A stretch of 64,000 nt of DNA, taken from positions 32,001-96,000 of the forward strand of contig CAWHXP010000005.1 in assembly GCA_963833425.1 (NCBI GenBank), given 5' to 3'. The position numbers and the translations under genes are program-made. This document shows, one piece after another, positions 21,974 through 42,126 of the stretch (position 1 is its first letter; the number at the start of each line of letters is the position of its first letter). The stretch is from an uncultured Methanosarcinaceae archaeon. GTDB lineage: Archaea > Halobacteriota > Methanosarcinia > Methanosarcinales > Methanosarcinaceae. The notes beneath the pieces were generated by a model, which saw only the letters and a list, made by a program, of their open reading frames with translations, did no database searches and was not told the DNA's origin.

Positions 21974-21982
21974 TCAAAAGCC

Positions 21983-25354: not shown

Positions 25355-25696
25355 TTAGGAGTGCATTTTTAAGGTGGGGTATCCTTCATAACAGTTATTG
25401 CATAACACAGTCACAGTAGGACTTTTACCCTTTTGTCGGATCGTTTTTATCATTCCACATTTTTCTAACTCGTTCAATGCTGTCGGAAAAGCCCAATCAG
25501 GGATAGGTAAAAGGGAATTTATACCTTTCAAGGTGACTACTAAATTTGTAGATTTTTTAATACCTTTTAAGTGCCAAATGTACATAGCCACCCTATAAGT
25601 ATGCCCAACTGAATTTGAAGGTAGCTTCACAATCCATTCTAAAGGCAATTGGGGTATGAAGTATCCTTTTATTTTATCTCTAGAATTTACTAACAT
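25355..25696 (-). CDS. Winged-helix protein, second copy of 35767-36135
   Basis: Nearly identical protein and DNA at an offset of 10439 bp. Confidence 0.8.
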   Translation of the reverse strand: MLVNSRDKIKGYFIPQLPLEWIVKLPSNSVGHTYRVAMYIWHLKGIKKSTNLVVTLKGINSLLPIPDWAFPTALNELEKCGMIKTIRQKGKSPTVTVLCNNCYEGYPTLKMHS

Positions 25697-25797
25697 GATT
25701 TTACCCCATCTAATATTATTTCTAAATGATAAGAGTAAATAAATAAGAAATATAAAGAAATATAAGTAGTAAAAACATTATCCGAAGGCTTTAGAAT

Positions 25798-25880
25798 TTA
25801 GCTGTGTAGCTAATTAATTTTAGCTGTAGAGCGAAATATATTTTGCTGTGCAGCTAATTAATATTGCTCTGTAGCTAAAT
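25798..25880. repeat. Iteron-like 21-22-bp repeats (copy 1)
   Basis: ttagctgtgtagctaattaatt / ttagctgtagagcgaaatatat / tttgctgtgcagctaattaat / attgctctgtagctaaat. Confidence 0.8.
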
Positions 25881-25921
25881 TCAAAGTGTAGACAAAACAG
25901 ATTATTGGAACTATTCTGCTT

Positions 25922-26012
25922 TCAGCTTCCTTCTTCTTTAATTTCTCCTAAAATCTCCATAATCAAATGCCACTTTTCTGCACCCTTCTCATCTATATAC
26001 CTATCAGGATAA
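25922..26012 (-). pseudogene. C-terminal fragment of a second family A DNA polymerase allele
   Basis: YPDRYIDEKGAEKWHLIMEILGEIKEEGS* versus YPERYIDEKGAETWNLIMRILKEVKQE* in 36388-38157. Confidence 0.85.
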
Positions 26013-26099
26013 AGATCGTATTAAAAATACCTTTGATAATTACATGAACAAGTTCAAACCTTATTTATCAAAAACCATTTGAAGCATCTAGAGCAAAAA

Positions 26100-26116: not shown

Positions 26117-27543
26117 TGGTGATGATAGCTACCTTAAGACGCTGAATATATCAATAGTGGATTTTTATTCTATTAAAATTTGATTGAGTTTAGAAAGTCA
26201 AGATTAACGAATTAATGACTCATTAGATTCTCGATTCACAGCAAACTTCGTTAGAATTTGTTGTCTTATTTCATTTATTTCTGCCATAAAGTCTTACAGA
26301 CTGAAGCCAGATATACTCAGGACTGTCTAATACCTTCAGGCAAAATATATTGCAAATCCAGGTTTATGAAACCGATCTCTGAACTCACAAATGAAATGTA
26401 CCTGGATTATGTAGGCTCATGATAATTAATAAAATGACATTTTTCCGCTTCAGGAAAGCTCTGGCTCAAATATGAACGAGTATAGGGCGATTCGAGGCAT
26501 TTTCTTGAGAAGTTAATTAAAACTATTAACTAGATGGAAAAAAACCCCATGATAGGGCTTAAAATAAGCCAGTTTTTGTCAATCCGTTAGCAAAACATGG
26601 GACAAAGTCAGCAATTTAGTCCAAACTAATCAAAAAGTAAATGAAATCTCATGTTGATTTAGAGAATCTGGAGAAGCCTGTTAGTCAACCATCACCTATT
26701 TGCTCTCGTAAACCCTAAGTAAGTCCAAGATATAGCTAATAATAATTTTTATTACTTTATTAATATAATAGGATATTGAACGCATTTAGTTTAAATTGTA
26801 TTAGATATACTTCTTTATCTGAAATAAAGATGATCCATTTATATAAAAACTAAACTATAACTCCAGATTAAAAAGTGGTTATTACAGATTTTTCATCCCT
26901 GTGACTACTAATCAGGTCCAAAATTAACATTTTATGCAACTATATTTCAAAAATTAAGATCAAACATAATCAAGGACCGTTATTTTCGGTTCGGTCAATG
27001 GGATGCGGTGACAAAAAACAAATTAGTTCATTACTTCCAGTTTTGGATAATAAGCCTAATAACAAAAATAAGTGGAGCGGAAGGATCAAAAACTTTATTT
27101 GCTCAATGTTGTGACAATACTTCTCATTGAATTTAGCTATTATCATAGACATCCCAATACCTTGCAGTAGACTTCGTACCTTTAAATCATAAATTTTAAT
27201 AAATGGTAGTAAAGTCTTCCTTATAAAAAATAAATATAATTTATAAAAATCAGATAAAATAAATATTGAATTTGTTCTATTGCCTGAAAATAAGGCAATC
27301 ACATAGTCAATAAAATATATTTTAAAGTTGTAAAATAAATTTTTGACTTTCTAAAATTTAGTATCTATTCAGATAAATTTATGTATTTACTTGATTATGT
27401 ACTCAAAATTCCAAAATGGAAATCTTTATTTTATTAGCTAGGGATATCTCATTTATCTTTTATCTCAAAATTTTGATCTTAGAGCTAAAATGGTGAACTG
27501 TTGTGATAAAACCCAACTTTTGTACCAGAAAGCCGGAGAAGTT

Positions 27544-27900
27544 TATTTATTCGAATTTTTTAATTCTTCAAGATTTCTCTCACAAAAATCAATTCGTCTA
27601 AGATCTTCAATTTTTCTATCCATTTTTATTGCCTGTTCATAATACTCAATTGCTTTTATTGTCTCTCCCAAATCTCTATACGCGTTTCCCAGATTACCAA
27701 GGTGAATTCCTTCTGCGTCCCTATTTCCAATTTCTTTAGCAATTTTGAGTGCTTGTTCATAATACCCAATTTCTTTTTTCGTCTCTCTCAGAGCACTGTA
27801 TGCATTCCCTAGATTTCAAAGTTGATTTCCTTCATTAAGTCTATCACCTATTTATCTTGCAATTTTTAGTGACTGTTCAAGATAATTTATTGCTTTCCTC
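27544..27900 (-). pseudogene. Orphan TPR 3'-end cassette 1
   Basis: EGIHLGNLGNAYRDLGETIKAIEYYEQA...IEDLRRIDFCERNLEELKNSNK*; homologous to 34700-35050; contains frameshifts. Confidence 0.85.
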
Positions 27901-28734
27901 CCTACTTATGCTGCTCGGAGTGTTTCTCATCTTTATGTTCTTCACCGGATTTTTTGCTGTCGTTTTGTTGCTCATCTGAGTGTTTCTTCTTAGGAGCCGT
28001 GTAAATACATCCAATTCCCAGAACAACGCGTCCAATCGCCAGTAATATTAAGATTATATAGTTTGGAAACTTTGTCTTCATATTATGCACCTATTTTTAT
28101 ATTTTATAATGCATTATTAATTTATAGATAATTGACTTATTGACTTATTATCTATAATGATTATAGCAAAATGCAAATATTATATAAATACTGCCTATAT
28201 ATACTATATATATTTATATATGAATAAAGTGTTTAGCAAAGGAAAAAATATAAATCCAATAACTCCAAAGATAATTTTACGCATGTAAATAATAAAATAA
28301 GATCTTTTTAATATAAGACTTATGAAGGCTCAACTGCAAAATCTCCTTTAAGTATTTATCGCGTAAATAATGAATAAAAAAGTTGGGAATGATTTTTTTC
28401 TTATTTGTAAGTGGAAAAAATCTGTCTCAGGATGAACTTTAAGAAAAAAATGTGCCAACCTATAGCTAAAAGCAGAATACAAGTTGATTGTCTCTTGATG
28501 ACGTCTGATGTCCTCACGGTTCTAATTTTGTCTTTTGATGCAATTGTAACCAGTGGTGAACAAAAACCCATTAATAATCAAAGTTTAGCTTCGGTAGTAA
28601 AAAGATGGGGGATGGAAGTAATGATCTTACTTAAGACTAACCTTTTCCTTTTTGTTCAGTCTAAGTTGTAATATGATCGGTTTTGTTGCAAAAATAATAT
28701 CTCTGCAGTTTACTCATTAATTTTTACCTTTATG

Positions 28735-29069
28735 TACTATTTTTCTCGGTTATGAGACTAATTAATTTTCAAATTGTGATAAACATATTGATTTTGTAAC
28801 AAAGCCAAATTTTTTGCACCAAAAATCAGCAAGTTTATTTTTTCTAAATTTTTAATTTCTCAAGATTTCTCTCGCAAAAATCAATTAGTCGGGAATCTTC
28901 AATTTCTTTAGCAATTTTGAGTGCCAGTTTATAATATCCAATTGCTTTCTTTGTCCTTCCAAGATCATTGTATATTATTCCCAGATTTCCAAGGCATTTC
29001 CCTTCTCCTTTCTTACCCCCAATTTCTTTAGCAATTTTGAGTGACTGTTCATAATACTCAATTGCTTTT
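28735..29069 (-). pseudogene. Orphan TPR 3'-end cassette 2 plus 3' flank
   Basis: KAIEYYEQSLKIAKEIGGKKGEGKCLGNLGIIYNDLG...IEDSRLIDFCERNLEKLKI*; homology to 34820-35150 includes about 100 bp of non-coding DNA. Confidence 0.85.
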
Positions 29070-29104
29070 ATAAGATAGCATCATTATTTTGTAGGAGATA
29101 AACT

Positions 29105-29410
29105 ATGGAGAAAATTGGATTGGTAGAGACGATAGAAGCCTTGCGGTCAGAGTTATCTGCGGCGGTAAAGAAAGCCCAAGGACAAGAGATTCAGTTTCCG
29201 ATAGGTTCAGTACAACTGGAGTTCCAGGTAGGAGTGACATGGGACGCAGAGACTAAGGGTAAAGTCAAGTTCTGGGTATTGGAGTTAGGAGCGAGCGGCA
29301 AATATGCAAACGAATCGGTCCAGAAGGTCACTCTTAATCTTGAAGCCCCAGTGAACACTGAGGGAAATATAGTGAAAGTGACAGAACATTCGCGACAGAG
29401 ACCGAGTTAG
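29105..29410 (+). CDS. Trypsin-co-occurring domain 2 (Trypco2) protein
   Basis: IGLVETIEALRSEL...VQLEFQV...VKFWVLELG...QKVTLNL pattern; RBS GGAG; directly upstream of a trypsin gene. Confidence 0.85.
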   Translation: MEKIGLVETIEALRSELSAAVKKAQGQEIQFPIGSVQLEFQVGVTWDAETKGKVKFWVLELGASGKYANESVQKVTLNLEAPVNTEGNIVKVTEHSRQRPS

Positions 29411-29422
29411 GGAGGGTAGATA

Positions 29423-30823
29423 GTGTTAGCAGGGCTGAACAGTCGAGCCGTTGAAGTTATCTATGAAGGGTGTGACGAAAACGGACATTTCTGGGAGGTA
29501 GGTTCTGGGTCCTTCGTTCGCCCTAATCTGGTGCTTACTGCCTCGCACTGTATTCCCGGCCCGGGCAAATTAAGAGTGCGTCTTCTCTACGACGGAAAAA
29601 AGTACCCTGCGACAGTGCGCCTGCAAGCTGACAAAGACAACGCAGATTTAGCAGTACTCGAAGTTTCTAATGTACCAGTGGAAGTCCCTGTTCTACGATT
29701 TGGAGAGGTAAATCGGAATATATCAGGGAAAGTGAAGGAATGTATAGCAATTGGCTTCCCCAGGTTCAAAGATATCGAAGATAAATCTAAGGTACTGCGT
29801 TGCAGTGCCCAAGTCGAGGGGGAGATCCCAACCGGAGAAAATTTTCGCCAGCCCATTCTTACGCTACAGATAACAAACAAGAATCCACGATCACTACCTG
29901 ATAACAAATCGGAATGGGCAGGGATATCTGGGGCAGTAGTATACTCGAGCAATGATACTATCATAGGTGTGATAACTGAGCATCATCTCCCGGAGGGTGA
30001 GAGTGCGTTAAACGTTGTGCCAATTACGGCCATCGATGGTCTAGATGAAGCGGGGAAATGGTGGCAGTTACTAGGTGTGAACCGTCAAGCACTCGTAAGT
30101 CTGCCGAAAATTATAGGCAATGTTACAGGCAAGCTAGCTACTGGGAAATATATCAATCAAATTGTGATAAAAGAGCCATCAGTAGAGGCATTAGTTAAAC
30201 AGATGGACTTTTTAGAACAAAAAGAAGAAAGTTTTGATTTATTTTTAAGCTATTTACACTTAGATGATGAGTTTGTTGACAAATTGTCCTGGTTGCTCGA
30301 AAATATTGCCTACTTAAGGGTATTGCATGACAGATGGATTATTTTGCCTGAAAAATGGCAGCAAGAAATACCTCGTGGATTCGAACTCACAAAATCTTGT
30401 GCAATATGTATCGGAGGGGAAACCCCCGAAGGTTGGTTTAGAGACGAGATTGAACTGGCTATCAGTCACCAAAGTGAAGATAAAGCATTCAGAGTTATTC
30501 CAGTGTTATTGCCCAATGCTCAAGAAATAAGTCTTGATGATTTCCCTGAGTTAAGAACTTTGGTGGACTTTAGGAATGGTTTGGAAGATACTAAAGAATT
30601 GCATCGTCTAGTTTCCGGGATACGCGGTGTGCCGCCAGGAAGAAAGCCTTCGGAAATTGTGATACAAGAACCTGATATTGAACCTGATATTAATAGAGCT
30701 CGTAAGCAATTAAGGATAATTGAACAACTGAGCTTTGAATTTAAGGCTATTTTCTCTCAAAAGCTAGTGGATGAGAGTGTTCGTAAGATAGTAAAAGTAA
30801 ATGTGTTAATGAAAAATAGGTGA
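29423..30823 (+). CDS. Trypsin-like serine protease fused to a C-terminal TIR domain
   Basis: Triad motifs LTASH, DLAVL and GISG; TIR motifs FDLFLSY, WFRDEIELA and RVIPVLL. Confidence 0.9.
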   Translation: MLAGLNSRAVEVIYEGCDENGHFWEVGSGSFVRPNLVLTASHCIPGPGKLRVRLLYDGKKYPATVRLQADKDNADLAVLEVSNVPVEVPVLRFGEVNRNISGKVKECIAIGFPRFKDIEDKSKVLRCSAQVEGEIPTGENFRQPILTLQITNKNPRSLPDNKSEWAGISGAVVYSSNDTIIGVITEHHLPEGESALNVVPITAIDGLDEAGKWWQLLGVNRQALVSLPKIIGNVTGKLATGKYINQIVIKEPSVEALVKQMDFLEQKEESFDLFLSYLHLDDEFVDKLSWLLENIAYLRVLHDRWIILPEKWQQEIPRGFELTKSCAICIGGETPEGWFRDEIELAISHQSEDKAFRVIPVLLPNAQEISLDDFPELRTLVDFRNGLEDTKELHRLVSGIRGVPPGRKPSEIVIQEPDIEPDINRARKQLRIIEQLSFEFKAIFSQKLVDESVRKIVKVNVLMKNR

Positions 30824-30827
30824 CTCA

Positions 30828-33800
30828 ATGGCAGACACCAAGTACAAGTATGATGTATTTCTGAGCTATTCAAGATCTGATGTGAATTCAGTTGAAAAAG
30901 TTGCGAGCTATCTCAGTGATGCAGGACTGAACGTCTGGTTTGATGAATGGTCACTGGTTCCAGGTCAGCAATGGGAGGCATCTTTAGAGGAAGCTTTTGA
31001 TAGTTCGCTTACAATCGCTGTTTTTGTAGGTCCTTCATCGTTAAGTAATCAGCAACAACTGGAGTTGAAAGAAGTCCTTAATAAGCAGATGAACGGTGCA
31101 GTTCATAGGGTCATACCTATCCTACTTCCTGGATCCAGTATAGATTTTATCCCTTTACCCCTTCGCAAAATATGCGCTTTAGACCTTCGTAAAGGTCTTG
31201 AGACAAAACGCGAGCTAAATGAACTTGTTAAAATGATTACCGAATATAAAACCGTAACCTATGGCACTGGACTAACAACAGGTCGCGATGTTTCCATAGG
31301 TGATGTTACCGGCCAGCTAGCTATTGGGAAATATATCAATCAAATTACTATAAAAGAGCCTTCTGGAAAGGCGTTAGTTGAATTAATAGCTTATCTGGAA
31401 CAAGAGAGAAATAAAGAAGAAAATCTTAAAATTTTAAACAGCTATAATCCTTCTGTCCTTCCTTATTTTGACCCTAGACTAAAAGAATTTGTTACCACAA
31501 ACAGAGTGGAAGAATTAAGCCAAGCTCTCGTATATCTTCAGGATCACAGGCTTTTACTTTTTACTGGATTAGGTGGAGTTGGAAAGACTACTCTTGCAAG
31601 AGCCATTATTGATATAAGACCAGCTAATGTACCTATTCCTTTCTGGTTTGATTTCAGTCAAAATCAGAGTGCCAAACTAGGGGATATTCTCGAAAAACTC
31701 GCAGCATATATGAATTCTCGAGATTTAGTAGGATTCAAAGAGGAAAAACGAGAGCCAGAAAAAAAGGATATTGATAAACTCATAGACAAATTAAATGTAG
31801 GAAACCCAGTATGGCTTATTTTCGACAACTTGGAAACTATAATGGATGACATTTATTTCCAAGATGAATATATAGATCTATTTTTTACTTGTTTGTTTAC
31901 CAACACTTACCAGATAAAGATCATTATAACGAGTAGAACTGTTCCAATGTTAAAAAATGAAGAATGCTTAATTAACGTAATAGAAGGAGATAAACAGAAT
32001 GTTGGGGGTTTGAAGACTAATTTTGCAGTTGAATATCTCGCCAAAAACGGGCTTGCTAATATAGAACTTTATAAGCTTGAAGAACTTGCCAAAGGAGTTG
32101 ATGGACATCCTCTGGCTCTAAAACTTCTTGTAGAATTAGTAAAGAAATTTGGAGAAGAAGATACCATAGAGGATCTAAATATATATCAGGAACAAAAACA
32201 GGACACAATATTAAAAGCGAGAAAGCTCTTTGACAAACTAGTAGGGAAAGAAAAAGCTCTAGTTGAGCGTATTTCTGTCTATCGTGAGCCTGTGAAGATA
32301 GAAGGGCTTAAAGAGATGTTTATGGAGAAGACATCTTTAACTGATATTCAAAGGCTTAGGAATAAGTCACTATTAGAAACTGATCTTAGTGGTAAGTATT
32401 GGCTTCATCCTCTGGTACAAGAGTTCTCTTACTACGACCTTGAAAACAAAAAAGAAGTACATAAGCTTGCAATGAATTATTACCTTTCTCTATCTATTCC
32501 TGAAAAGCCTGTAAAAAAAGAAGATATCCAGTCTCTTATTGAAGCACACTACCATGCCTACACGGCAAAAGAATACGATCAGGCTTTCAACATCATATTT
32601 GACAATAAATTGAATGAATATCTTGATCTCTGGGGCAATTATACAGTACTTATTGATCTCTACTCAAAATTATTGCCAGATAATCATTTTAAAACCGAAA
32701 TTCTTCTGAAAGATAAAGGAAGTCATGGTATAGTCCTTGGGAATCTAGGGCTAGCATACCGTGATCTTGGAGAGATAAGGAAAGCAATTGAGTATTATGA
32801 ACAAGCACTCAAAATTGCTAAAGAAATTGTGGATAGGCAAGATGAAGGAATTTGGCTTGGAAATCTGGGGAGTGCATACAGTGATCTAGGAGAGACGAAA
32901 AAAGCAATTGAGTATCTCGAACAAGCACTAGAAATTGCTAAAGAAGGAGACAGGAAAAATGAAGGAATTTGGCTTGGAAATCTAGGGAATGTATACCGTA
33001 ATTTGGGAGAGACGAGAAAAGCAATTGAATATCATGAACAGGCACTAGAAATTGCTAAAGAAACTGGAGACAGGAAAAATGAAGGAGGTCAACTTGGAAA
33101 TTTGGGGAACGCTTACTATAATTTGGGAGAGACTAAAAAAGCAATTGAGTATTTAGAACAGGCACTAAAAATTGCTCAAGAAATAGGAGACAGGCAAGGA
33201 GAAGGAGCAGACCTTGGAAATATGGGGAACGCTTACTATAATTTGGGAAAAACGAAAAAAGCAATTGAGTATTACGAACAGGCACTAAAAATTGCTCAAG
33301 AAATTGGGTACAGGCTAGGAGAAGGAATTTGGCTTGGAAGTCTAGGGAACGCATACAGTGTTCTAGGAGAACAGAAGAAGGCAATTGAGTATTCTAAACA
33401 GGCACTAAAAATTGTTCAAGAAATTGGGTACAGGCAAGTAGAAGGAACTTGCATTGGAAATCTTGGGAATGCATACAAGGATCTTGGAGAACCGAGAAAC
33501 GCAATTAAATATTATGAAAAAGCACTCAAAATTGCTCAAGAAATTGGGGATAGGCAAGGAGAAGGAACAGACCTGGGAAATCTGGGGTTAGTATACAGTG
33601 ATCTAGGTGAGACTAAAAAAGCAATTGGATATTACGAGCAGGCATTGCTAATTTCAAGAAAAATAGGTGATAGACGCGGAGAAGGAACTTGGCTTGGGAA
33701 TCTTGGAAACGTTTACAGACAACTGGATAAGATTACAATAGCAATTGAATATTACAAGCAGGCACTAGAAATTGCTCAAAAAATTGATGATAGACGAGGA

Positions 33801-34892
33801 GAAGGTGCAGCTCTTGGAAATCTGGGGTTAGTATATAGTGATCTAGGTGAGATTAAAAAAGCAATTGAATGTTATGAGCAGACTTTGCTAATTTCAATAG
33901 AAGTAGATGATAGACGCGGAGAAGGAATCGCTCTTGGAAATCTGGGATTAGTATATAGTTATCTAGGTGAGATTAAAAAAGGAATTGAACATTATGAGCA
34001 GGCATTAAAAATTTCGAAGGAAGTGGGGAATAGACACGCTGAAGGTGCGATTCTTGGAAATTTGGGGAATGCATATAGCCAAGTTGGTAAGATTACAACA
34101 GCACTTGAATATTACGAGCAGGCTTTGCTAATTTCAAGAGAAATAGGTGATAGACGCGGAGAAGGAAATCGTATTGGAAATTTGGGGTTAGTATACAGTG
34201 ATCTGGGTAAGGTTACAACAGCAATTGAATATTACGAGCAGGCTTTGCTAATTTCAAGAGAAATAGGTGATAGACGCGGAGAAGGGACTTGGCTTGGAAA
34301 TCTAGGGCTAGCATACTCTAATTTGGGAGAACCGAAAAAAACAATTGAATATTTTGAACAGGCATTCAAAATTGCTCAAGAAATCGGGGACAGGCAGGTA
34401 GAAGGAACTTGCATTGGAAATCTTGGGAATGCATACAGTGATCTGGGAGAGACAAAAAAAGCAATTGAGTATTATGAACAGTCACTCAAAATTGCTCAAG
34501 AAATAGGGGACAGGCAAGGAGAAGGAATTTGGCTTGGAAATCTAGGGAGAGCATACTATAATTTGGGAGAGACGAAAAAAACAATTGAATATTTTGAACA
34601 GGCATTCAAAATTGCTCAAGAAATAGGGGACAGACAAGTAGAAGGAACTTGCATTGGAAATCTTGGGAATGCATACAGTGATCTGGGAGAGACAAAAAAA
34701 GCAATTGAGTATTATGAACAGTCACTCAAAATTGCTCAAGAAATTGGGGATAGGCGAAATGAAGAAGTTTGGCTTGAAAATCTGGGGAAAGCATACAAGG
34801 ATCTTGGAGAGACGAAGAAAGCAATTGAATATCATGAACAGTCACTCAAAATTGCTAAAGAAATTGGAGGTAGGCGAAATGAAGGAACTTGA
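30828..34892 (+). CDS. TIR + STAND (NB-ARC-like) NTPase + TPR repeats (NLR-like)
   Basis: YDVFLSYS and RVIPILL; GLGGVGKT, LIFDNLE, GHPLAL, LHPLV; 18 TPR units of about 40 aa; ends at a TGA where neighbouring repeats have TGG or TGC. Confidence 0.93.
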   Translation: MADTKYKYDVFLSYSRSDVNSVEKVASYLSDAGLNVWFDEWSLVPGQQWEASLEEAFDSSLTIAVFVGPSSLSNQQQLELKEVLNKQMNGAVHRVIPILLPGSSIDFIPLPLRKICALDLRKGLETKRELNELVKMITEYKTVTYGTGLTTGRDVSIGDVTGQLAIGKYINQITIKEPSGKALVELIAYLEQERNKEENLKILNSYNPSVLPYFDPRLKEFVTTNRVEELSQALVYLQDHRLLLFTGLGGVGKTTLARAIIDIRPANVPIPFWFDFSQNQSAKLGDILEKLAAYMNSRDLVGFKEEKREPEKKDIDKLIDKLNVGNPVWLIFDNLETIMDDIYFQDEYIDLFFTCLFTNTYQIKIIITSRTVPMLKNEECLINVIEGDKQNVGGLKTNFAVEYLAKNGLANIELYKLEELAKGVDGHPLALKLLVELVKKFGEEDTIEDLNIYQEQKQDTILKARKLFDKLVGKEKALVERISVYREPVKIEGLKEMFMEKTSLTDIQRLRNKSLLETDLSGKYWLHPLVQEFSYYDLENKKEVHKLAMNYYLSLSIPEKPVKKEDIQSLIEAHYHAYTAKEYDQAFNIIFDNKLNEYLDLWGNYTVLIDLYSKLLPDNHFKTEILLKDKGSHGIVLGNLGLAYRDLGEIRKAIEYYEQALKIAKEIVDRQDEGIWLGNLGSAYSDLGETKKAIEYLEQALEIAKEGDRKNEGIWLGNLGNVYRNLGETRKAIEYHEQALEIAKETGDRKNEGGQLGNLGNAYYNLGETKKAIEYLEQALKIAQEIGDRQGEGADLGNMGNAYYNLGKTKKAIEYYEQALKIAQEIGYRLGEGIWLGSLGNAYSVLGEQKKAIEYSKQALKIVQEIGYRQVEGTCIGNLGNAYKDLGEPRNAIKYYEKALKIAQEIGDRQGEGTDLGNLGLVYSDLGETKKAIGYYEQALLISRKIGDRRGEGTWLGNLGNVYRQLDKITIAIEYYKQALEIAQKIDDRRGEGAALGNLGLVYSDLGEIKKAIECYEQTLLISIEVDDRRGEGIALGNLGLVYSYLGEIKKGIEHYEQALKISKEVGNRHAEGAILGNLGNAYSQVGKITTALEYYEQALLISREIGDRRGEGNRIGNLGLVYSDLGKVTTAIEYYEQALLISREIGDRRGEGTWLGNLGLAYSNLGEPKKTIEYFEQAFKIAQEIGDRQVEGTCIGNLGNAYSDLGETKKAIEYYEQSLKIAQEIGDRQGEGIWLGNLGRAYYNLGETKKTIEYFEQAFKIAQEIGDRQVEGTCIGNLGNAYSDLGETKKAIEYYEQSLKIAQEIGDRRNEEVWLENLGKAYKDLGETKKAIEYHEQSLKIAKEIGGRRNEGT

Positions 34893-35164
34893 CTTGGAAA
34901 TCTGGGGCTAGCATATAAGAATCTGGGAGAACGAAGAAAACAATTGGGTATTATAAACAGGCACTAAAAATTGCTCAAGAAATTGAAGATCCCAGAATAA
35001 TTGATTTTTGTGAGAGAAATCTTGAGAAATTAAAAATTCGAAAAATAAACTTCTCTGGCTTATGTGCAAAAAATCAGTCTCTGTTACAAAATCGGTGTAG
35101 ACCATCACAATTAAGAAAGTTAATTAATCTCATAACTGCGAAAAATATACAAAACGAGACCCTT

Positions 35165-35526
35165 CTTCAGACTACCACCATTTGGGAATGATTGCGCAGG
35201 AGCGTCAGAAGTTTGAAGAGGCTGAAGAATTGTATAGAAAAGCGCTGGAGATTTTTGAACGTTTGGGGCTTGAAAGATACGCGGCTGCAGACTACCACCA
35301 ATTAGGAATTGTTGCACAGGAGCGTCAGAAGTTTGACGAGGCTGAAAAATGGTATAGAAAAGCGCTGGAGATGTATGAATGTCTGGGGCTTGAAAGAGAT
35401 GCTGCTACAGGCTATCTTCATTTGGGAATGATTGCGCAGGAGCGTCAGAAGTTTGACGAGGCTGAAGAACTTTATAGAAAAGCTCTAGATATTTTTAGCA
35501 GATCAAAGTCGAAAATAACTAGATAG
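35165..35526 (+). pseudogene. Fragment of an unrelated TPR family (3 repeats)
   Basis: YHxLGMIAQERQKFDEAEE repeats; no proper start. Confidence 0.7.
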
Positions 35527-35766: not shown

Positions 35767-36135
35767 TCATTTCCTATTCATTATTACTACTTCTCCATGA
35801 TCGAAATTTAAAGTGGGATATCCTTCATAACAATTATCACATAACACAGTCACAGTTGGACTTTTACCGCGCTGTCGTATAGTTTTTATCATTCCACATT
35901 TTTCTAACTCATCCAATGCTCTTGGAAAAGCCCAATCAGGGATAGGTAAATGTATATTTATATCTTTCAAGGTGACTACTAAATTTGTAGATTTTTTAAT
36001 ACCTTTTAAGTGCCAAATGTACATAGCCACCCTATAAGTATGCCCAACTGAATTTGAAGGTAGCTTCACAATCCATTCTAAAGGCAATTGGGGTATGAAG
36101 TATCCTTTTATTTTATCTCTAGAATTTACTAACAT
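35767..36135 (-). CDS. Winged-helix DNA-binding protein (candidate origin-binding protein)
   Basis: RALDELEKCGMI helix followed by a beta-wing; adjacent to the iteron-like array. Confidence 0.75.
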   Translation of the reverse strand: MLVNSRDKIKGYFIPQLPLEWIVKLPSNSVGHTYRVAMYIWHLKGIKKSTNLVVTLKDINIHLPIPDWAFPRALDELEKCGMIKTIRQRGKSPTVTVLCDNCYEGYPTLNFDHGEVVIMNRK

Positions 36136-36236
36136 GATTTTACCCCATTTAATATTATTTCTAAATGTTAAGAGTAAATAAATAAGAAATATAAAGATAT
36201 ATAAGTAGTAAAATCACTATCAAAAGGCTTTAGAAT

Positions 36237-36343
36237 TTAGCTGTGTAGCTAATTAATTTTAGCTGGAGAGCGAAATACATTTTGCTGTGCAGCTAATTAA
36301 TATTGCTCTATAGCTAGATTGGAATTTGGCTCTACAACTAAAT
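36237..36343. repeat. Iteron-like 21-24-bp repeats (copy 2), candidate origin
   Basis: Four to five units of the tt(a/t/g)gct-N4-agctaa type beside an AT-rich tract at 36160-36215. Confidence 0.8.
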
Positions 36344-36387
36344 AGAAAAGTCTGTCCAGGGTTTTTGAGTCTTATTTACGATGTTTT

Positions 36388-38157
36388 TTACTCTTGTTTT
36401 ACTTCTTTGAGTATCCGCATAATAAGATTCCAAGTTTCTGCACCTTTCTCATCTATATACCTTTCAGGATAACGAACAATACCGGCATCTGTTTTCAATC
36501 TGTTACCAGCACCTAGAACAATTTCAGATGCATCACACATCAGCTTTCTCGCTATCTCTATCTCTTTGTCTGCCGCCTTTTCATCGCACTCAATCATCAC
36601 TGCATCGTGAACTGGAGCAACAATTTTAATTTTATTTTCCGAGAGAAGGATGCATGCCACTCTAAGAATTTCAGCTCCAGTAGCTTGAATTGGGAAATTT
36701 CGGACGGTCAACATTTCCTTGTTGCTGGAGCCTGAAACAATCATTTTCCATTTATAGCAGGTTTCAATCCTTTTCATCAAACAGGCTTGAGTCCAGGTCA
36801 TATCTACCCAACGCCAGTAAATTTTAAAAATTCTTTTATGATGACTAAGCAGTTCCTTTGCATAAGGTGTAGGCTTACCAATTTTAAATCCAAGTGATTC
36901 TGCACCCAAGCCATACTGGACACCAAGTACACAAGATTTAAAGAGTTGTCTCGCACTGCCATGCGTTTCTTTTGTAGCGTCTGCTGGAACTGCACCTGCT
37001 AATTTTGCAAAAGCCAGATACGGATCCCCACTTTTATATGCCTCAATCATATTAGGGTCCTTAGAGAGAATTGCTGCAATAAAAAACTCTTGTTGTGAAT
37101 AATCAATATATGCAAGCACTTTTTCCTCAGTCGGTTTTATTAGACTTCTCAGACTAGCAGGAAGTCCAAACATAAACCGAACTCTTAATTCTCCTCTATT
37201 CTTTTTCTCCTCGTCATCCTTTGGGGCATTTCTACCTGTCTTAGTCCAGTAGGGAGAGATTAAAGTTCGACTTCTGCCATCTGAACCAGCCACTATAGAC
37301 TTAAAGTTTAGCCCACCAATAAGAGTTTTTAATTCCTTCAAAGGCCCTATTTCAGGATGGATTTCTGCCATTTCCTTGAATGTTTCCTTATCGGTTTTTG
37401 GCAGACCAGTGTCAGTTCTCGGCCACGCCCAATTGTTGACTTGAATAAATCTCTCAAAATTATTTATTTTAAAACTGGTTCCTTCGTAAATTCCAAATTT
37501 GTCAATATTTTTTATCAGTTTAAATTTTATTTTTTCCCAGTTTTCTTGCAACTCTTGAAGTAGATCGGTATCTATTGGTATACCAGTATATTCGATTTCA
37601 GCCACAGATTTCATATACTCCCCCCGATAGAGAGAAGTGGGTATGTCGAAATCAGGGACCATAATCATTCGTTTGAATAACTCGGCTGTTTCAAGTACGT
37701 CAGATTCGCAATAACTCATAATATATTCTTGATCTTCTTCAGAGTAAGGAGCTCCAGCTAAAATACGATCTCTGGCAGCATCTTTCTCCACTTTGCTAAT
37801 AGTCTCTATGCCAAAAGCTTTACAGGCATCCAGCAGGTTTGCACCTCTTCGTTCATAAGAATGATTAGAAAAGCACCTGTACTCTACGAATGAATCAATT
37901 ACATTGAATGGTAAAGGCCAGCTTAAGACCAGGTGGCACCCCCACTCTGCTGAACTCATATGAGCAACAAATAAATCATTTTCACCTATTGAGTAGGGCG
38001 GCTGATGATTGCTTTCTTCGAAAAGCCACAGTCTTTTAGTTTCTCCAGAAATTATTTCATGGGAAACAACACAAACAGGTATTGGACGTTCGCTAGGCTT
38101 TGCGATAAATTCAAAATCAATCACATAAATATGATTAAAAAATGATAGGGGGAGCAT
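36388..38157 (-). CDS. Family A DNA polymerase with 3'-5' exonuclease domain and no 5'-3' nuclease
   Basis: ExoI IDFEF, ExoIII YCESD, motif A DYSQQE, motif B RQLFKSCVLGVQYG, motif C VHDA. Confidence 0.92.
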   Translation of the reverse strand: MLPLSFFNHIYVIDFEFIAKPSERPIPVCVVSHEIISGETKRLWLFEESNHQPPYSIGENDLFVAHMSSAEWGCHLVLSWPLPFNVIDSFVEYRCFSNHSYERRGANLLDACKAFGIETISKVEKDAARDRILAGAPYSEEDQEYIMSYCESDVLETAELFKRMIMVPDFDIPTSLYRGEYMKSVAEIEYTGIPIDTDLLQELQENWEKIKFKLIKNIDKFGIYEGTSFKINNFERFIQVNNWAWPRTDTGLPKTDKETFKEMAEIHPEIGPLKELKTLIGGLNFKSIVAGSDGRSRTLISPYWTKTGRNAPKDDEEKKNRGELRVRFMFGLPASLRSLIKPTEEKVLAYIDYSQQEFFIAAILSKDPNMIEAYKSGDPYLAFAKLAGAVPADATKETHGSARQLFKSCVLGVQYGLGAESLGFKIGKPTPYAKELLSHHKRIFKIYWRWVDMTWTQACLMKRIETCYKWKMIVSGSSNKEMLTVRNFPIQATGAEILRVACILLSENKIKIVAPVHDAVMIECDEKAADKEIEIARKLMCDASEIVLGAGNRLKTDAGIVRYPERYIDEKGAETWNLIMRILKEVKQE

Positions 38158-38726
38158 TAAAGCTCACCCCTGAGTTTCTTTAAAACCGGATGGTTATGGT
38201 CATCAATGAACTTGTCCTTGAAAGCTAATTCGATAGCTTTCACCATATTCTCTGGTTCCTCAGGCCATTCCGGGTCTGGAAGTTTACTCATTGATAAGAT
38301 CATGTCGTAAGCTCCAATTGAGTCATTCGTTTGAAGCTTTAGCCATTGAGTTTCAGCTGCTGTGTAAGCTAACCTTCTGGTTCGATTATATTCATGATCC
38401 TTACCATCTGCGTCAGGTTTGGGAATTTCTGAGAGAAAGATTTCACCTGACCCGTAAGTAATGCCGGCGTAAATTCTGACGAGTCTTAACTTTTTTGTTT
38501 CTATTACCTCTGGGTACAGAGCCGGATCGAGAAGAAATTTTCCTTCTCCATCACCTTTTCCACCTAAATCTAAGAGATAAGTGTCAAATTTCCATTCAGA
38601 CCCAGGCCTGATCCTAAAGAATTCCACACCAGGTTTAGGTTTCTTGATTGGGATGGAAGTTACTACACGTTTAACAACGATGGATATAGTTTCAGTAACT
38701 TGGAGAGCCTCAAAGTTAAAAGGCAT
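38157..38726 (-). CDS. PolA-coupled protein, putative ssDNA-binding protein
   Basis: GGAGG RBS; stop overlaps the pol start (TAATG); beta-rich and aromatic. The SSB function is inference. Confidence 0.6.
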   Translation of the reverse strand: MPFNFEALQVTETISIVVKRVVTSIPIKKPKPGVEFFRIRPGSEWKFDTYLLDLGGKGDGEGKFLLDPALYPEVIETKKLRLVRIYAGITYGSGEIFLSEIPKPDADGKDHEYNRTRRLAYTAAETQWLKLQTNDSIGAYDMILSMSKLPDPEWPEEPENMVKAIELAFKDKFIDDHNHPVLKKLRGEL

Positions 38727-38880
38727 CTAAAAAACCTCCATCGTTGAAGTAAAATTTTCTAGACTATACATGCGACTGCTAGGTGCAGAGCTAAAAAAGG
38801 AAACTATATTTGATATGGAAACTATATTATTCATGATGCATCACTTTTTATTTATGGGTCGATCTGTTCTTTTGGGTCAC

Positions 38881-39264
38881 TCATGATGAAAGCAAGCATC
38901 CTACAGTGATGGTTTGCGAAATTCCCGACTGCTTGGCCGCTGCGGATATTCGCGAATCACTAACTGCAACGTTTTTAATTAAGATGGCTTTTGCTTTATC
39001 ATATACATACTCTGTTTTGAGTAGCAAAGCAATCCCCAATCTAGTTTTACTGTTTTCAGAGTTGCCTCTCCTCTTATCGATGGATGCTCTTATTGGCAGG
39101 AGACGTGCCTGAGCTATTTTTTCGATTTTGATCATTGTTTTATGTACATTGGAGAGATGATGATCAAGTTCCGCATCTATCGTTAAAGTTTTATTTTTAT
39201 AATATATTATGCATAATGATACCTTCGATATTTTGGGACTTCCCGTAATCTTGCTTTTAAGCAT
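38881..39264 (-). CDS. Hypothetical basic protein
   Basis: Start overlaps the upstream ORF stop; GAGG RBS. Confidence 0.55.
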   Translation of the reverse strand: MLKSKITGSPKISKVSLCIIYYKNKTLTIDAELDHHLSNVHKTMIKIEKIAQARLLPIRASIDKRRGNSENSKTRLGIALLLKTEYVYDKAKAILIKNVAVSDSRISAAAKQSGISQTITVGCLLSS

Positions 39265-39427
39265 TTATCCTCACTCCTACCGTTTTTAATATGTCTTTCG
39301 CAATAACCCGATTTAGAGGATTATCACTTTTCAACATGAGCAATAAAACGTCGTTATTTTGTTCACTAACAAGTCTTGCCCATTCTGAGAACGAAAAAAA
39401 TTTATCTTTTCTGGTTATAGAGTTCAT
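39257..39427 (-). CDS. Small hypothetical protein (56 aa, below the ORF track cutoff)
   Basis: MNSITRKDKFFSFSEWARLV...GVRINA*; coupled to both neighbouring ORFs. Confidence 0.6.
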   Translation of the reverse strand: MNSITRKDKFFSFSEWARLVSEQNNDVLLLMLKSDNPLNRVIAKDILKTVGVRINA

Positions 39428-39428
39428 T

Positions 39429-39638
39429 TCATTCACCTTCTTTCAGATGGTTGATGTTAATCTCGGTTCCACTGGCCCGGCAAGACTCTACAGGAACTGA
39501 GGTTATGATAATTCTTTGTTCATTGTCCATTTCGATCTTTACGTTTTCAGGATTATCTGACCTGATCCACTGTATTGGCAGTCTAATTAAATAGCTACCG
39601 GCTTGTCTAAATATTGACATTTGGCCTAAATTTATCAT
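39429..39638 (-). CDS. AbrB/MazE-like DNA-binding protein
   Basis: RQAGSYLIRLPIQW swapped-hairpin pattern; GAGG RBS. Confidence 0.65.
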   Translation of the reverse strand: MINLGQMSIFRQAGSYLIRLPIQWIRSDNPENVKIEMDNEQRIIITSVPVESCRASGTEININHLKEGE

Positions 39639-39701
39639 TTAAGTACCTCAATTTTACTTCGATACGATTAACGTCATAATTTTATATATAGATTCTATAT
39701 A

Positions 39702-40658
39702 TTGGTGAGTAGATTTATTAGAACAACATGTTGTGAGACAAAACTAAATATCCAACATGTTGGTAGATTATCAGCATTATTTAAAAGAAGTTACAGCATG
39801 TCTTATAACATGGAAGAAAAATATATCCAGGAAAAAACAATAAAAGATAGAATCTTAGGAAGTTTAGTATATTGTCCGAAAACAAACACTCAACTGTTGC
39901 AAGAGCTGAGTTATAGTAATAAACAACATGGTAATATTTCTAAACAATTACATCAGCTCAAAACAGATGGGTTCATTGTTGATGAAAAAGAAAAATCCCC
40001 AAATATAGATGACTATGCTACGTCATGGTCAATAGTCCCAAGTCTAGAAAATGTTAGATATATAGCAAAAGATCCAGATTTGGTACCAGTGCTGCAAAAG
40101 AAAGATTTTGCTCTTGAAGTTATGGCTGAGAACATTCGTGTTTCAATCATTCCAGATGTTATTGTGGATATAGATGCTATTAGTTCTCTTAAAAGTAAAA
40201 AAATAATTATAGGAGCTAAAGAGGAATTATATTTACTTCTAGAAGAGCCTAAAAGAAAATTTAAGGAAATGTTAAGATTATCTCCTGCATTCTTCAACCT
40301 TCATCTACTCCATGAAGTGTACAACATGATGTCTTGGAGTGATTTTGAAAGGGAAATTGAAGAATTACGATATATAGCTAAATTTCAACTTATCCCTTCT
40401 CTTAAGATAGTAGAGTATTATCTATATCAGAATTCATATGATTTTAAAATGTGTGTTAAAAGAGATATGTTTTTTGAAAAATTAAGTGATGAGAAAAAGA
40501 ACTACTTGATTGAAATAGAAAATTATTTGAATGAAGAAGAAAAAAATAGTGATGCCATCAGAAACTCCATCCTAAAAGTCATCACACATCCTGAATATAA
40601 TTCTGTATTGAAGGAAGAAGAAAAAAATATTAAGACCATCAAAAAAGCCATCATGTAA
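39702..40658 (+). CDS. N-terminal winged-HTH regulator (true start probably ATG 39798 or 39810)
   Basis: NISKQLHQLKTDGFI helix; divergent from the AbrB-like gene. Confidence 0.65.
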   Translation: MVSRFIRTTCCETKLNIQHVGRLSALFKRSYSMSYNMEEKYIQEKTIKDRILGSLVYCPKTNTQLLQELSYSNKQHGNISKQLHQLKTDGFIVDEKEKSPNIDDYATSWSIVPSLENVRYIAKDPDLVPVLQKKDFALEVMAENIRVSIIPDVIVDIDAISSLKSKKIIIGAKEELYLLLEEPKRKFKEMLRLSPAFFNLHLLHEVYNMMSWSDFEREIEELRYIAKFQLIPSLKIVEYYLYQNSYDFKMCVKRDMFFEKLSDEKKNYLIEIENYLNEEEKNSDAIRNSILKVITHPEYNSVLKEEEKNIKTIKKAIM

Positions 40659-40794
40659 CCGGAATATAATTCTGCATTGAAATAAATTTTCTCTAAATAT
40701 CGTTTTACCTAAATTTCTAAAAATATTAAAAGAATTTGTATTACAATTTATTGTCTAATTGTGGAATTGGTTTCGTTATAGATAGCCATTTAAA

Positions 40795-42126
40795 TTACTT
40801 TTCATTTTTAAGCATGGCCTCCTTTAATGTTGAAATTTCATCAAGCTCCCTTTTTAATTCGTTCTTCATTTCCCATATTTTTTCAAGATCTGCATATTGC
40901 ATATAGTCAGCTTTGATAGATTCGGTGGCTTTCATGTTTTCTATCTCTGCCTTGAGTTCCTGCAGTTCAGATCTTTCGTCTTTTCTTTCCTGTGTCATAA
41001 TGTCAGTAATTCGCTTGTATGCATCTTTATCTTCCTTCATTTGAATGAAAGCGGGGTGCTCCGTAGGATCGATTGATTTTTCAATAGTTAGATATGAGAT
41101 ATATTTTGTATACTCTTCCTTCAATTTCTCAGGGGAAGCTCTATAATATGCCTCGTGTGTCGCATCCAATTGGTGCCCGAGCAGGAAATCCACAAAAAAT
41201 AAACTGGCATGTTCATTGAGTAACGTGGTATTAAAGAATCTCCTCATATTATGTGATCTGTTGATATTATATTCACCACTTCCTGAACTGGTCTGAGCTT
41301 CTTCATTCAGTCTATGATAAATTGATATTATCGTTTCTTTACTTAGCTTTCTGAGCTCTTCTTTATCTTTCATTTTCTTAGCTGTCAGATATTCAAAAGG
41401 CACAGCCCTGGTGACAAACAAATATCCTTCTTTAGTAGTAACACGTTGTTTTTCGAGTTGTTGCTCTTTTATTTTGCTTTTATAATTAGGCTCCCTATTT
41501 CGCCAATTAAGATAATCCTGAATTGCTTTTGAAGCTTCGGGAGATAAGAAAGTATAGAACTCATAGTTTTTCTTTTTTCTGACAAGGTGTAGCGTTGTTA
41601 TGCCTGTCTTTGGGTCATAACCATCTACGAAATCACTAACTCTAAGATTGGAGATATCCACAGCACTCAATCCACTACTGACGCCCACTAACACAAGAGC
41701 ACGCTCAAGGGGATCACAAACATTAAGGATTTTTCTTATATCATCCTTAGTTGGTATTTTCTTTCGTTTTAATTCCGGTCTTGCATTTGTCGTGCCTTTT
41801 GGGAGTACTGGCAACTGAATATTATACAATCTATAGAATGAGCATACTCCAGTCATTCTGCTTTTAATAGTCAGTGGAGCAATATCTTTTCTCTCCAAAT
41901 GTTCTCTAAACTCTCGGAGATAACTGGTTATATTTCTCTCACGCATCAAGAGTCCAGCGCGAATCTCTTTTTCGGCTTCTTCTATAAGCTGTAATGGCGT
42001 GTTATGGGTGAACTCAGTAAATTGCTGCATTGATTGCAAATACACCCTTCTTGTTTCATAAGCCGCTTTGATTCCGGATAGCCAATCCTTAATTATTTTG
42101 TCGTTCTTTAACTCATTAACTTTCAT
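40795..42126 (-). CDS. Tyrosine recombinase / integrase
   Basis: SSGL..DISNL, HNMRRFF, LLGH and catalytic Tyr region (HEAYY); C-terminal coiled coil. Confidence 0.93.
   Translation of the reverse strand: MKVNELKNDKIIKDWLSGIKAAYETRRVYLQSMQQFTEFTHNTPLQLIEEAEKEIRAGLLMRERNITSYLREFREHLERKDIAPLTIKSRMTGVCSFYRLYNIQLPVLPKGTTNARPELKRKKIPTKDDIRKILNVCDPLERALVLVGVSSGLSAVDISNLRVSDFVDGYDPKTGITTLHLVRKKKNYEFYTFLSPEASKAIQDYLNWRNREPNYKSKIKEQQLEKQRVTTKEGYLFVTRAVPFEYLTAKKMKDKEELRKLSKETIISIYHRLNEEAQTSSGSGEYNINRSHNMRRFFNTTLLNEHASLFFVDFLLGHQLDATHEAYYRASPEKLKEEYTKYISYLTIEKSIDPTEHPAFIQMKEDKDAYKRITDIMTQERKDERSELQELKAEIENMKATESIKADYMQYADLEKIWEMKNELKRELDEISTLKEAMLKNEK

Follow-up and report, generated by a model that had tools for sequence, protein, structure and literature searches.

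A three-gene operon in a 64,000-nucleotide stretch of DNA (contig CAWHXP010000005.1, assembly GCA_963833425.1; the whole stretch is called the window here) encodes a small Trypco2/Pepco-type protein (P0001), a trypsin-like serine protease joined to a TIR domain (P0002), and a STAND protein in which a TIR domain is followed by an NB-ARC-type NTPase and a long array of tetratricopeptide repeats (TPR; P0003). On the evidence of sequence comparisons, the operon appears to derive from a protease-STAND sensor of a single chain that has been split in two by a cassette comprising one TIR domain (TIR-A), a stop, a start, and a second TIR domain (TIR-B). It is highly probable that the locus is a STAND-protease-Pepco suicide module. 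Within this module the TIR pair most likely re-couples the sensor and the protease, because fused relatives exist, the linker between the two parts is duplicated, and the TIR-A and TIR-B genes form a conserved pair.

A search with P0002 yielded 51 proteins with E values of ≤1e-3 among 7,999 scored candidates. In the proteins that match its protease half best, an NB-ARC, NACHT-type, or AAA_16 domain is present in the same chain (for example, in P0008, P0009, P0011, P0013, P0015, P0019, P0021, and P0022), or FHA, FGE-sulfatase, or TPR domains are found. One of the single-chain proteins, P0019 from a metagenome-assembled genome of Ignavibacteriales (767 amino acids, ended by the contig edge), matches both products of the operon, with 48% identity to residues 3 to 277 of P0002 and 65% identity to residues 148 to 683 of P0003. 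The segment that joins protease and NTPase in P0019 occurs twice in the window, as residues 231 to 277 of P0002 and residues 157 to 206 of P0003, which are 60% identical over 50 residues. At the DNA level the duplication is a 108-nucleotide direct repeat with 79% identity and a spacing of 1,183 nucleotides, and it is the only direct repeat of at least 30 nucleotides within positions 29000 to 32000. The two copies enclose exactly TIR-A and its helical tail, a stop, 4 nucleotides, a start, and TIR-B.

The two TIR domains also occur as neighbors in bacteria. One genome per species was scanned with an alignment of TIR-A proteins as the query, and four loci were found (L001 to L004). In all three loci with downstream DNA (from Acidobacteriota, Hyphomicrobiales, and Algoriphagus), a TIR-A gene was followed by a TIR-B gene, at distances of +11, +9, and -11 nucleotides; L004 ends inside the TIR-A gene. 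The bacterial TIR-A is a stand-alone protein of ~195 amino acids. TIR-B is fused to TPR repeats in L002, and TPR open reading frames (ORFs) come after TIR-B in L001 and L003. No protease was attached to TIR-A in any of the four scanned loci, and neither an NTPase nor an effector other than the TIR domains was found in L001 to L003. The bacterial combination of TIR-A with TIR-B-TPR is possibly an undescribed small defense system. In L002, a ThsB-like TIR gene and a SLATT gene lie just upstream of the pair (8204 to 9780).

The division into two subfamilies was apparent from BLAST comparisons. TIR-A proteins scored 102 to 258 bits against each other and A-versus-B pairs 35 to 86 bits, and the TIR-B domains of the window, L001, and L002 scored 110 to 177 bits mutually; the L003 TIR-B was weaker (67 to 69 bits). 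TIR-A and TIR-B of the window are 32% identical. TIR-A and its tail were used to query 1.84 billion cluster representatives, which gave 3,090 proteins with E values of ≤1e-3, 39 of them at ≤1e-30. Among the 150 best matches listed, the first 76 rows contained 54 longer proteins, and these were scanned with Pfam, the short TIR-only proteins being left out. The partners of TIR-A among the 54 included trypsin (one protein), caspase (two), metallophosphoesterase (two), Mrr nuclease (one), Ser/Thr kinase-TPR (ten), EAD9 (one), and NB-ARC (five). A second TIR-type domain was present in 12 of the 54 representatives, and in 4 of these 12 (P0208, P0216, P0229, and P0236) one TIR was A-like and the other scored higher to the B group. 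The TIR-A clade thus appears, as far as domain architectures can tell, to behave like an adaptor. Fusions to TIR-A include two caspase proteins (P0192 and P0225) and two TIR-A-STAND-TPR proteins (P0107 and P0142), and TIR-B is found in a TIR-B-STAND-TPR protein (P0063). Protease-TIR-A fusions seem to have arisen more than once (two trypsin subfamilies and caspase), because in P0010 and P0018 trypsin domains of another subfamily are fused to TIR-A domains with 63 to 68% identity to the window TIR-A.

When TIR-B (P0003 residues 1 to 155) and TIR-A (P0002 residues 265 to 466) were modeled as a complex, the median score was 0.40 (runs of 0.45, 0.40, and 0.40), compared with 0.04 for the best of three controls; the runs agreed in at least 92% of contacts, and the predicted local distance difference test (pLDDT) value of the partner was at least 64. 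Of 157 solved complexes 116 passed the mark, as did 2 of 215 mismatched pairs. Only 18 of those 157 complexes passed with scores of 0.60 or lower, and both passing mismatches did so; these counts hold only roughly for the TIR pair, for which alignments prepared in this analysis were used. Because TIR-TIR complexes are among solved structures, the pass may reflect likeness to them. Taking the lines of evidence together, we lean slightly toward a physical coupling of TIR-A and TIR-B. An earlier note on this DNA had proposed that the receptor recruits a separate protease through TIR-TIR contacts; the fused homologue, the duplicated linker, and the conserved gene pair strengthen that proposal, and its binding step rests where the model leaves it, at a verdict of "weak support."

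The three co-directional ORFs are separated by gaps of 12 nucleotides (P0001/P0002) and 4 nucleotides (P0002/P0003), and Pfam and the ORFs bear out the Trypco2/trypsin-TIR/TIR-STAND-TPR operon that had been described in the earlier note. Shine-Dalgarno-like purine runs precede the starts: GGAGA before P0001, GGAGGG before P0002, and AGGTGA, overlapping the P0002 stop, before P0003.

Table 1. Coordinates of the operon, its domains, and associated repeats in the window, and of the bacterial gene pairs in their own loci
Feature	Position	Strand	Evidence or remarks
P0001, Trypco2/Pepco-type small protein	29105..29410	+	101 aa, ATG start
P0002, trypsin-TIR	29423..30823	+	466 aa, GTG start
HtrA/DegP-like serine protease domain, P0002 1-230	29423..30112	+	Pfam, phmmer, alignment, AlphaFold2
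Linker copy 1, P0002 ~231-266	30113..30220	+	Direct repeat of 31296-31403; pLDDT <50 at 233-268
TIR-A, P0002 ~270-405, with Trp338 and Glu342	30230..30637	+	Pfam, PDB alignment, AlphaFold2
C-terminal two-helix hairpin after TIR-A, P0002 420-465	30680..30823	+	pLDDT 76-87; no known family
P0003, TIR-NB-ARC-TPR	30828..34892	+	1354 aa, ATG start
TIR-B, P0003 1-145, with Glu79	30828..31262	+	Pfam, PDB alignment
Linker copy 2, P0003 ~157-192	31296..31403	+	Direct repeat of linker copy 1
STAND NTPase, NB-ARC-like	31500..32147	+	Walker A, Walker B, TSR, GxP motifs
TPR array, ~18 units of 40 aa (120 nt)	32736..34892	+	Tandem Repeats Finder, unit table
Premature P0003 end: TGA, 1-nt deletion, out-of-frame last repeat, native tail EIEDPRIIDFCERNLEKLKI	34890..35045	+	
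Inverted 3'-end remnant of a TPR paralog, immediately upstream of the operon	28729..29068	-	82% over 345 nt to 35154-34818
Bracketing direct repeat, left copy	25368..26015	.	86% over 669 nt, 94% over 514 nt; 113-aa ORF, no known family
Bracketing direct repeat, right copy	35807..36475	.	122-aa ORF, no known family
Bacterial TIR-A/TIR-B loci	L001 9980-11947; L002 10010-13507; L003 9986-12568		Genome scan

The protease half of P0002 matches Pfam Trypsin_2 (residues 27 to 183; E value, 8.7e-11), and phmmer aligns its His and Asp to those of DegP-like proteases. The complete His-Asp-Ser triad reported earlier was recovered as His42, Asp75, and Ser169. In a 36-row alignment with 21 rows that include the protease, His and Asp are kept in 21 of 21 and Ser in 20 of 21. 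The AlphaFold2 model (mean pLDDT, 82.2) has a confident protease and a confident TIR with disorder at residues 233 to 268 between them; its best fold matches in the PDB were HtrA1, DegQ, DegP, and DegS, and the fold search returned proteases only. The second half matches TIR_2 (residues 274 to 396; E value, 1.6e-13; 51.7 bits; cut-off, 28). The hairpin behind TIR-A follows a GIRGxPPGR motif and is also conserved in the stand-alone bacterial TIR-A proteins. The nearest clusters in the ESM Atlas are trypsin-EAD11 (0.89) and trypsin-EAD9 (0.80), both below 0.9 and thus leads only. When plasmids were searched with P0002 by tblastn, 16 records were matched and none covered 80% of the query; 15 were Streptomyces matches to the protease only, and one was a Caballeronia TIR protein, a single protein of 1,447 amino acids and not a pair.

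P0003 begins with a TIR_2 match (residues 10 to 133; E value, 3.1e-21; 76.5 bits; cut-off, 28) and ends in TPR repeats (TPR_12; E value, 4.8e-143). NB-ARC is matched at residues 225 to 440 (E value, 2.8e-7), with 30.5 bits for the whole protein and 33.4 bits for the fragment against a cut-off of 23.5; nSTAND6 falls just below its own cut-off (26.3 versus 27.7 bits). The NTPase motifs are GLGGVGKTT (247 to 255), LIFDNLE (330 to 336), TSR (368 to 370), and GHPLAL (426 to 431), which we take to be the Walker A, Walker B, sensor-1 TSR, and GxP motifs. A comparison of the NTPase region with PDB sequences gave one marginal ArsA-type match of no use. Tandem Repeats Finder reported a period of 120 with 18.8 copies in the TPR array, the unit table contains 17 full 40-residue units, and variability among units is focused at positions 9, 13, 38, and 39. 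The STAND-TPR core of P0003 is a member of a large family: a 620-residue query from P0003 had 161 relatives with E values of ≤1e-3; among the best 120 of these, most cover about three-quarters of the query and lack a TIR, and P0063, P0107, P0142, and P0168 cover it fully. The order of TIR, NB-ARC-type NTPase, and repeats in P0003 is also that of the plant TIR-NB-ARC-LRR receptors, in which the repeats are LRR rather than TPR.

Both TIR domains have a Glu at the usual catalytic position, as had been noted from the sequence. Glu342 of TIR-A (in WFRDEIE) and Glu79 of TIR-B (in QQQLELK) correspond in the alignments to the W-x-x-x-E Glu of the PDB entries titled "NAD(+) hydrolase AbTIR," presumably the catalytic residue of TIR NAD+ hydrolases (NADases). 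This Glu is kept in 22 of 23 rows of the TIR-A alignment and in four of four TIR-B members of the gene pairs.

Residues 4 to 80 of P0001 match Pfam PF19631, Trypco2 (E value, 1.5e-26; 92.9 bits versus a cut-off of 24.2). NCBIfam yielded no family match to P0001 and no specific one to P0002 or P0003. Trypco1 and Trypco2 were named as genes that accompany trypsin-like peptidases, according to the available part of Kaur et al. 2020 (PMC7159879). The sections available of a recent preprint (Evans et al. 2025, bioRxiv 10.1101/2025.11.14.688446) rename them Pepco and describe a preassembled beta-barrel pore toxin that forms heat- and detergent-stable 9- to 10-mers. There the trypsin domain of an adjacent Avs4 cuts off a C-terminal Pepco tail of ~2 kDa after a conserved Ile; Pepco truncated at exactly that Ile is toxic, a basal amphipathic helix is needed, and the Pepco-protease-Avs4 pair that was studied responds to phage portal proteins. 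Trypco2 had been taken in the earlier note for an accompanying domain; in light of this account it would rather be a death effector, a pore toxin that is activated by a protease.

P0001 appears compatible with the Pepco picture, as judged from its model and alignment. The AlphaFold2 monomer, of low confidence (pLDDT, 59.8), has a helix (6 to 23), three strands (36 to 46, 54 to 59, and 71 to 79), and an unstructured basic tail (80 to 101). Among 33 aligned relatives the tail follows the consensus E-G-R-x-[VIL]-[KR]-V...K-P, with I, V, or L in the Val90 column in 33 of 33 rows and K or R in the next column in 32 of 33. By analogy, the candidate scissile bond probably lies after Val90, which may correspond to Ile97 of the studied Pepco. 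Relatives of P0001 comprised 133 proteins with E values of ≤1e-3 among 137 candidates, many with 80 to 86% identity. For seven close Trypco2 relatives, the longest contig has the same size as that of close relatives of the P0002 protease (24933, 8254, 102103, 22239, 9022, 12228, and 18732), from which we infer that the Trypco2 and protease relatives share a contig in these seven cases.

These features can be arranged into a sequence of events. The TPR array of P0003 would recognize a foreign protein, probably of viral origin, whereupon the NB-ARC-type NTPase would drive oligomerization, as might be expected from the family. The clustered TIR-B domains would capture the TIR-A domain of P0002, a step suggested by comparative genomics and, weakly, by the complex model, so that the TIR pair would do the work of the lost peptide bond between protease and sensor. 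The HtrA-like protease would be gathered and switched on via its disordered tether and, by analogy with the experiments on the bacterial homologue, would remove the basic C-terminal tail of P0001, probably after Val90. The preassembled P0001 beta-barrel would become a membrane pore, and the cell would be killed or arrested. A second output of the assembled TIR domains may be consumption of NAD+ or production of a nucleotide signal. The cassette itself would be a portable two-gene TIR-A/TIR-B unit, stand-alone in several bacterial phyla, that entered a protease-STAND gene of the one-chain type at its linker. The complete chain, in which sensor, protease, and pore toxin form a split NLR-like (STAND) defense module that acts by cell suicide, is in our view as likely as not. 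In animals, the receptor TIRs nucleate a second TIR protein (the MyD88/MAL scheme). That the heterotypic TIR pair is a true adaptor in an archaeon, with the role that CARD, PYD, and Death domains have in animals, is a tentative proposal somewhat short of even. We know of no counterpart in plant or animal TIR pathways of a recruited TIR protein that itself carries a protease.

Among known systems, the Pepco-protease-Avs modules are similar in having a small Trypco2 gene directly upstream of a trypsin-like protease tied to a repeat-bearing STAND protein, and the same logic of sensor activation, tail cleavage, and pore formation is expected. However, protease and STAND are one chain there and two genes, each with a TIR, here; the STAND protein here belongs to a TPR family of Methanosarcina and Methanolobus and not to Avs4; and Pepco is described as prevalent in Actinobacteria and cyanobacteria (Evans et al. 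2025, available part), whereas the host here is archaeal. Assignment of P0003 to the Avs type, as the earlier note had it, was not borne out: P0003 matches only TPR and TIR models of PADLOC, although Avs7-21 (bioRxiv 10.64898/2026.01.04.697583) are not in PADLOC v2.0.0. The PADLOC Avs1b model (9.6e-7) matches residues 25 to 184 of P0002, the protease part only.

The CARD-NLR gasdermin systems, as far as the available text of Wein et al. 2023 (PMC10312443) describes them, likewise combine a pore effector, a trypsin-like protease with an interaction domain, and a repeat-bearing STAND ATPase, and cleavage of the pore protein depends on this interaction domain. In those systems the domain is a CARD-like helical bundle, the pore protein is gasdermin, and there are two protease genes; here the corresponding parts are a TIR with an alpha/beta fold, Pepco, and one protease gene. 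Membership was rejected, since Pfam finds no CARD or gasdermin in the window proteins. The principle of effector-associated domains (EADs), in which one copy of a domain is located at the N terminus of a STAND protein and another on a neighboring peptidase (Kaur et al., PMC7159879 and PMC8195603, available parts; for example, bDLD1 or bDLD3 on iSTAND together with bDLD-trypsin), applies here as well, and the shared domain is joined to diverse effectors elsewhere, as in the TIR-A clade. TIR is counted in those sources as an NAD+-processing effector or signal generator and not as an EAD, and in the present operon the two copies come from separate TIR subfamilies whose genes are kept together as a conserved pair. 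In P0002 and P0003, Pfam found no EAD, bDLD, or TRADD-N family; the shared domain is the TIR. Thoeris was also rejected: P0003 has only marginal ThsB matches (E values, 0.0024 and 0.0051), and there is no ThsA-like gene within 26 to 38 kb. In the literature searched, no protease-TIR with TIR-STAND pair was described together with Trypco/Pepco, a search that left out the neighborhood tables of Kaur et al. and Evans et al., which may hold cases.

Several observations weigh against the reading of the operon as a sensor and protease that were split and re-coupled by TIR domains. The whole of P0002 is covered only by the window's own cluster (one member, one contig), and the next matches cover at most 75%. 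The trypsin subfamily of P0010 and P0018 is unlike that of P0002. The complex model is a weak pass only. PADLOC v2.0.0 recognized no complete system at the locus. Both window TIRs keep the NADase-motif Glu, which a pure adaptor would not need. At this position P0063, the TIR-B-STAND protein most closely related, carries Asp. The bacterial pairs, which lack any other effector, argue that the TIR pair is an enzyme in its own right. Finally, the module may be decaying, as discussed below.

Some of these points lead to an alternative in which the TIR pair is mainly an enzyme. After oligomerization of the sensor, the two TIRs would form a composite NAD+-cleaving or signal-making assembly, and protease and Pepco would be a second arm, switched on by the TIR signal or by the same assembly. 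We consider this unlikely. Both TIRs of the bacterial pairs carry the NADase-motif Glu, as do those of the window, and apart from the TIRs no effector domain is present in the bacterial pairs of TIR-A with TIR-B-TPR. The best PDB sequence matches of both window TIRs are the bacterial NAD(+) hydrolase AbTIR entries and their relatives, and proteases switched on by TIR-made signals have reportedly been described. However, P0002 has no known nucleotide-sensor domain (Pfam found no SLOG, Macro, SAVED, or CARF), the fused homologues operate without any TIR, and P0063 departs from the Glu. Moreover, the cassette sits exactly at the former covalent link, which suits coupling better than a diffusible signal. 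Since the Glu is conserved in both TIRs and the bacterial pairs lack other effectors, an additional NAD+-directed activity of the assembled TIRs is plausible, and we rate it as possible but rather less than an even prospect.

The second alternative, which we regard as improbable, is that the operon is a recent by-product of recombination in a hot spot of paralogous STAND-TPR genes, inactive or decaying, and that the TIR-flanked split has no selected function. P0003 stops at a TGA where the repeat consensus is TGG, and ~40 nucleotides later one base is missing. The out-of-frame end of P0003 runs into the tail EIEDPRIIDFCERNLEKLKI, in which the inverted remnant upstream of the operon (28729 to 29068) also ends. 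Further TPR debris lies at 27530 to 27821 and, on the plus strand, at 34893 to 35154 and 35165 to 35483; the last is of another TPR type, with three units of 120 nucleotides and a 114-residue ORF at 35182 to 35526. The nonsense change and the frameshift amid paralogous TPR debris suggest that the module may be decaying. A by-product would also be in keeping with the inverted and direct debris at 27.5 to 29.07 kb and 34.9 to 35.5 kb, with the bracketing direct repeat of 650 nucleotides, and with a linker duplication that is still 79% identical at the DNA level, as for a young event. A one-off, unexpressed fusion had been named in the earlier note as an outcome that would refute its reading; the exact fusion is a singleton, and the change from TGG to TGA with the 1-nucleotide deletion bears on the same question. 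On the other side, the frames are open over 306, 1,401, and 4,065 nucleotides in DNA with 36 to 47% guanine plus cytosine (G+C), none of the catalytic or NTP-binding motifs is damaged, the genes remain closely spaced with ribosome-binding-like sequences at their starts, and the sensor loses only ~45 of some 1,400 residues, its 4,065-nucleotide frame being open upstream of the stop. The repeated origin of protease-TIR-A fusions, with two trypsin subfamilies and caspase, also speaks against an accident.

A third alternative, which we regard as very unlikely, is that the system is active but not antiviral and serves regulated cell death or self/non-self recognition in an aggregate-forming methanogen, with an endogenous or kin-derived cue. 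In its favor, the window's two STAND proteins both have arrays of nearly identical units, which bring fungal incompatibility NLRs to mind, and a related CARD-NLR-type system was co-opted for lysis that releases gene transfer agents (PMC13236601, available part). Against it are the response of the studied Pepco-protease-Avs4 pair to phage portal proteins and the presence in the window of a second Pepco-type system and a PADLOC-matching PolA-like gene, as in a defense island.

The second Pepco-type system, a canonical fused one that adds to the case for the main reading, is located 7 kb upstream of the operon on the minus strand (18071 to 22309) and consists of Trypco1 (21983 to 22309) and a protein of 1,300 amino acids (18071 to 21973). 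In this protein, trypsin and NB-ARC are combined with APAF-1-type helical domains and with 13 WD40 units of 42 residues that are almost identical. The WD40 units vary mainly at positions 3 to 5, and the Asp motif of its protease reads G-F-A-I-L by eye, with no Asp. The possibility that the two Trypco systems are copies of each other was ruled out by BLASTP, which found no significant match between their proteases or between the two Trypco proteins.

The host is an archaeon, probably of the Methanosarcinales, as the archaeal core genes in the window (3-dehydroquinate synthase II, TruD, SRP54, and a XerA-like recombinase) and the named relatives of the STAND protein P0003, from Methanosarcina and Methanolobus, indicate; the core genes thereby agree with the archaeal origin claimed earlier. 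The 3-dehydroquinate synthase II gene (NCBIfam NF002626; 622.7 bits versus a cut-off of 485) adjoins a gene for a DeoC-family aldolase. The window has few long ORFs and long AT-rich gaps, with a G+C content of 0.28 to 0.32 in many 2-kb windows and 0.35 overall. No tRNA gene and no match to an Rfam family was found in the 64-kb window.

Downstream of the operon, at 1.5 to 7 kb, are a tyrosine integrase gene (40795 to 42126) and, with two small ORFs, a PolA-like gene on the minus strand (within 36388 to 42126) whose product of 589 amino acids matches a phage DNA polymerase PHROG (7.5e-49) and PADLOC RTasPolA (2.4e-28). The PolA-like gene overlaps by 1 nucleotide an ORF of 189 amino acids with no known family. 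This region (36388 to 42126) could be an integrated element or a third defense module. The proposal that the operon is carried as element cargo found little to sustain it beyond this proximity: no att-like repeat of at least 13 nucleotides linking 16.2 to 36.4 kb to 42.1 to 43.3 kb was found, and the operon genes (G+C, 0.36 to 0.47) show no compositional oddity relative to the core genes (0.42). The region looks like a recombination-prone defense island beside element genes, and carriage as cargo is possible. Other repeats in the window include 22-nucleotide tandem repeats at 36234 to 36316, in the right copy of the bracketing repeat; an inverted repeat (6865 to 7333 and 11041 to 11509; 469 nucleotides, 97.7% identity), which may represent a small mobile element, either its two ends or copies of it; and long internal DNA repeats (~75 to 78% identity, offsets of 240 to 630 nucleotides) in the gene for a pentapeptide-repeat protein of 378 amino acids (15062 to 16198).

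Prokaryotic TIR domains have been studied almost solely as NAD+-consuming enzymes, and TIR scaffolding is known from animal signaling. The operon makes it testable whether a prokaryotic TIR pair serves as plug and socket between a sensor and an executioner protease, and the fused relatives provide a built-in control in which the same parts occur without TIRs. The findings extend the Pepco pore-toxin pathway to archaea and draw attention to bacterial gene pairs in which TIR-A and TIR-B-TPR stand on their own. They further suggest that new immune wiring can result from the insertion of an adaptor cassette into an existing receptor gene. If the proposed reading of the operon is true, the archaeon would have an inflammasome-like chain of sensor, adaptor, protease, and pore that is built with TIR domains, and the operon would be a natural experiment in which a TIR pair replaced a peptide bond, placing the scaffolding use of TIR domains in prokaryotes.

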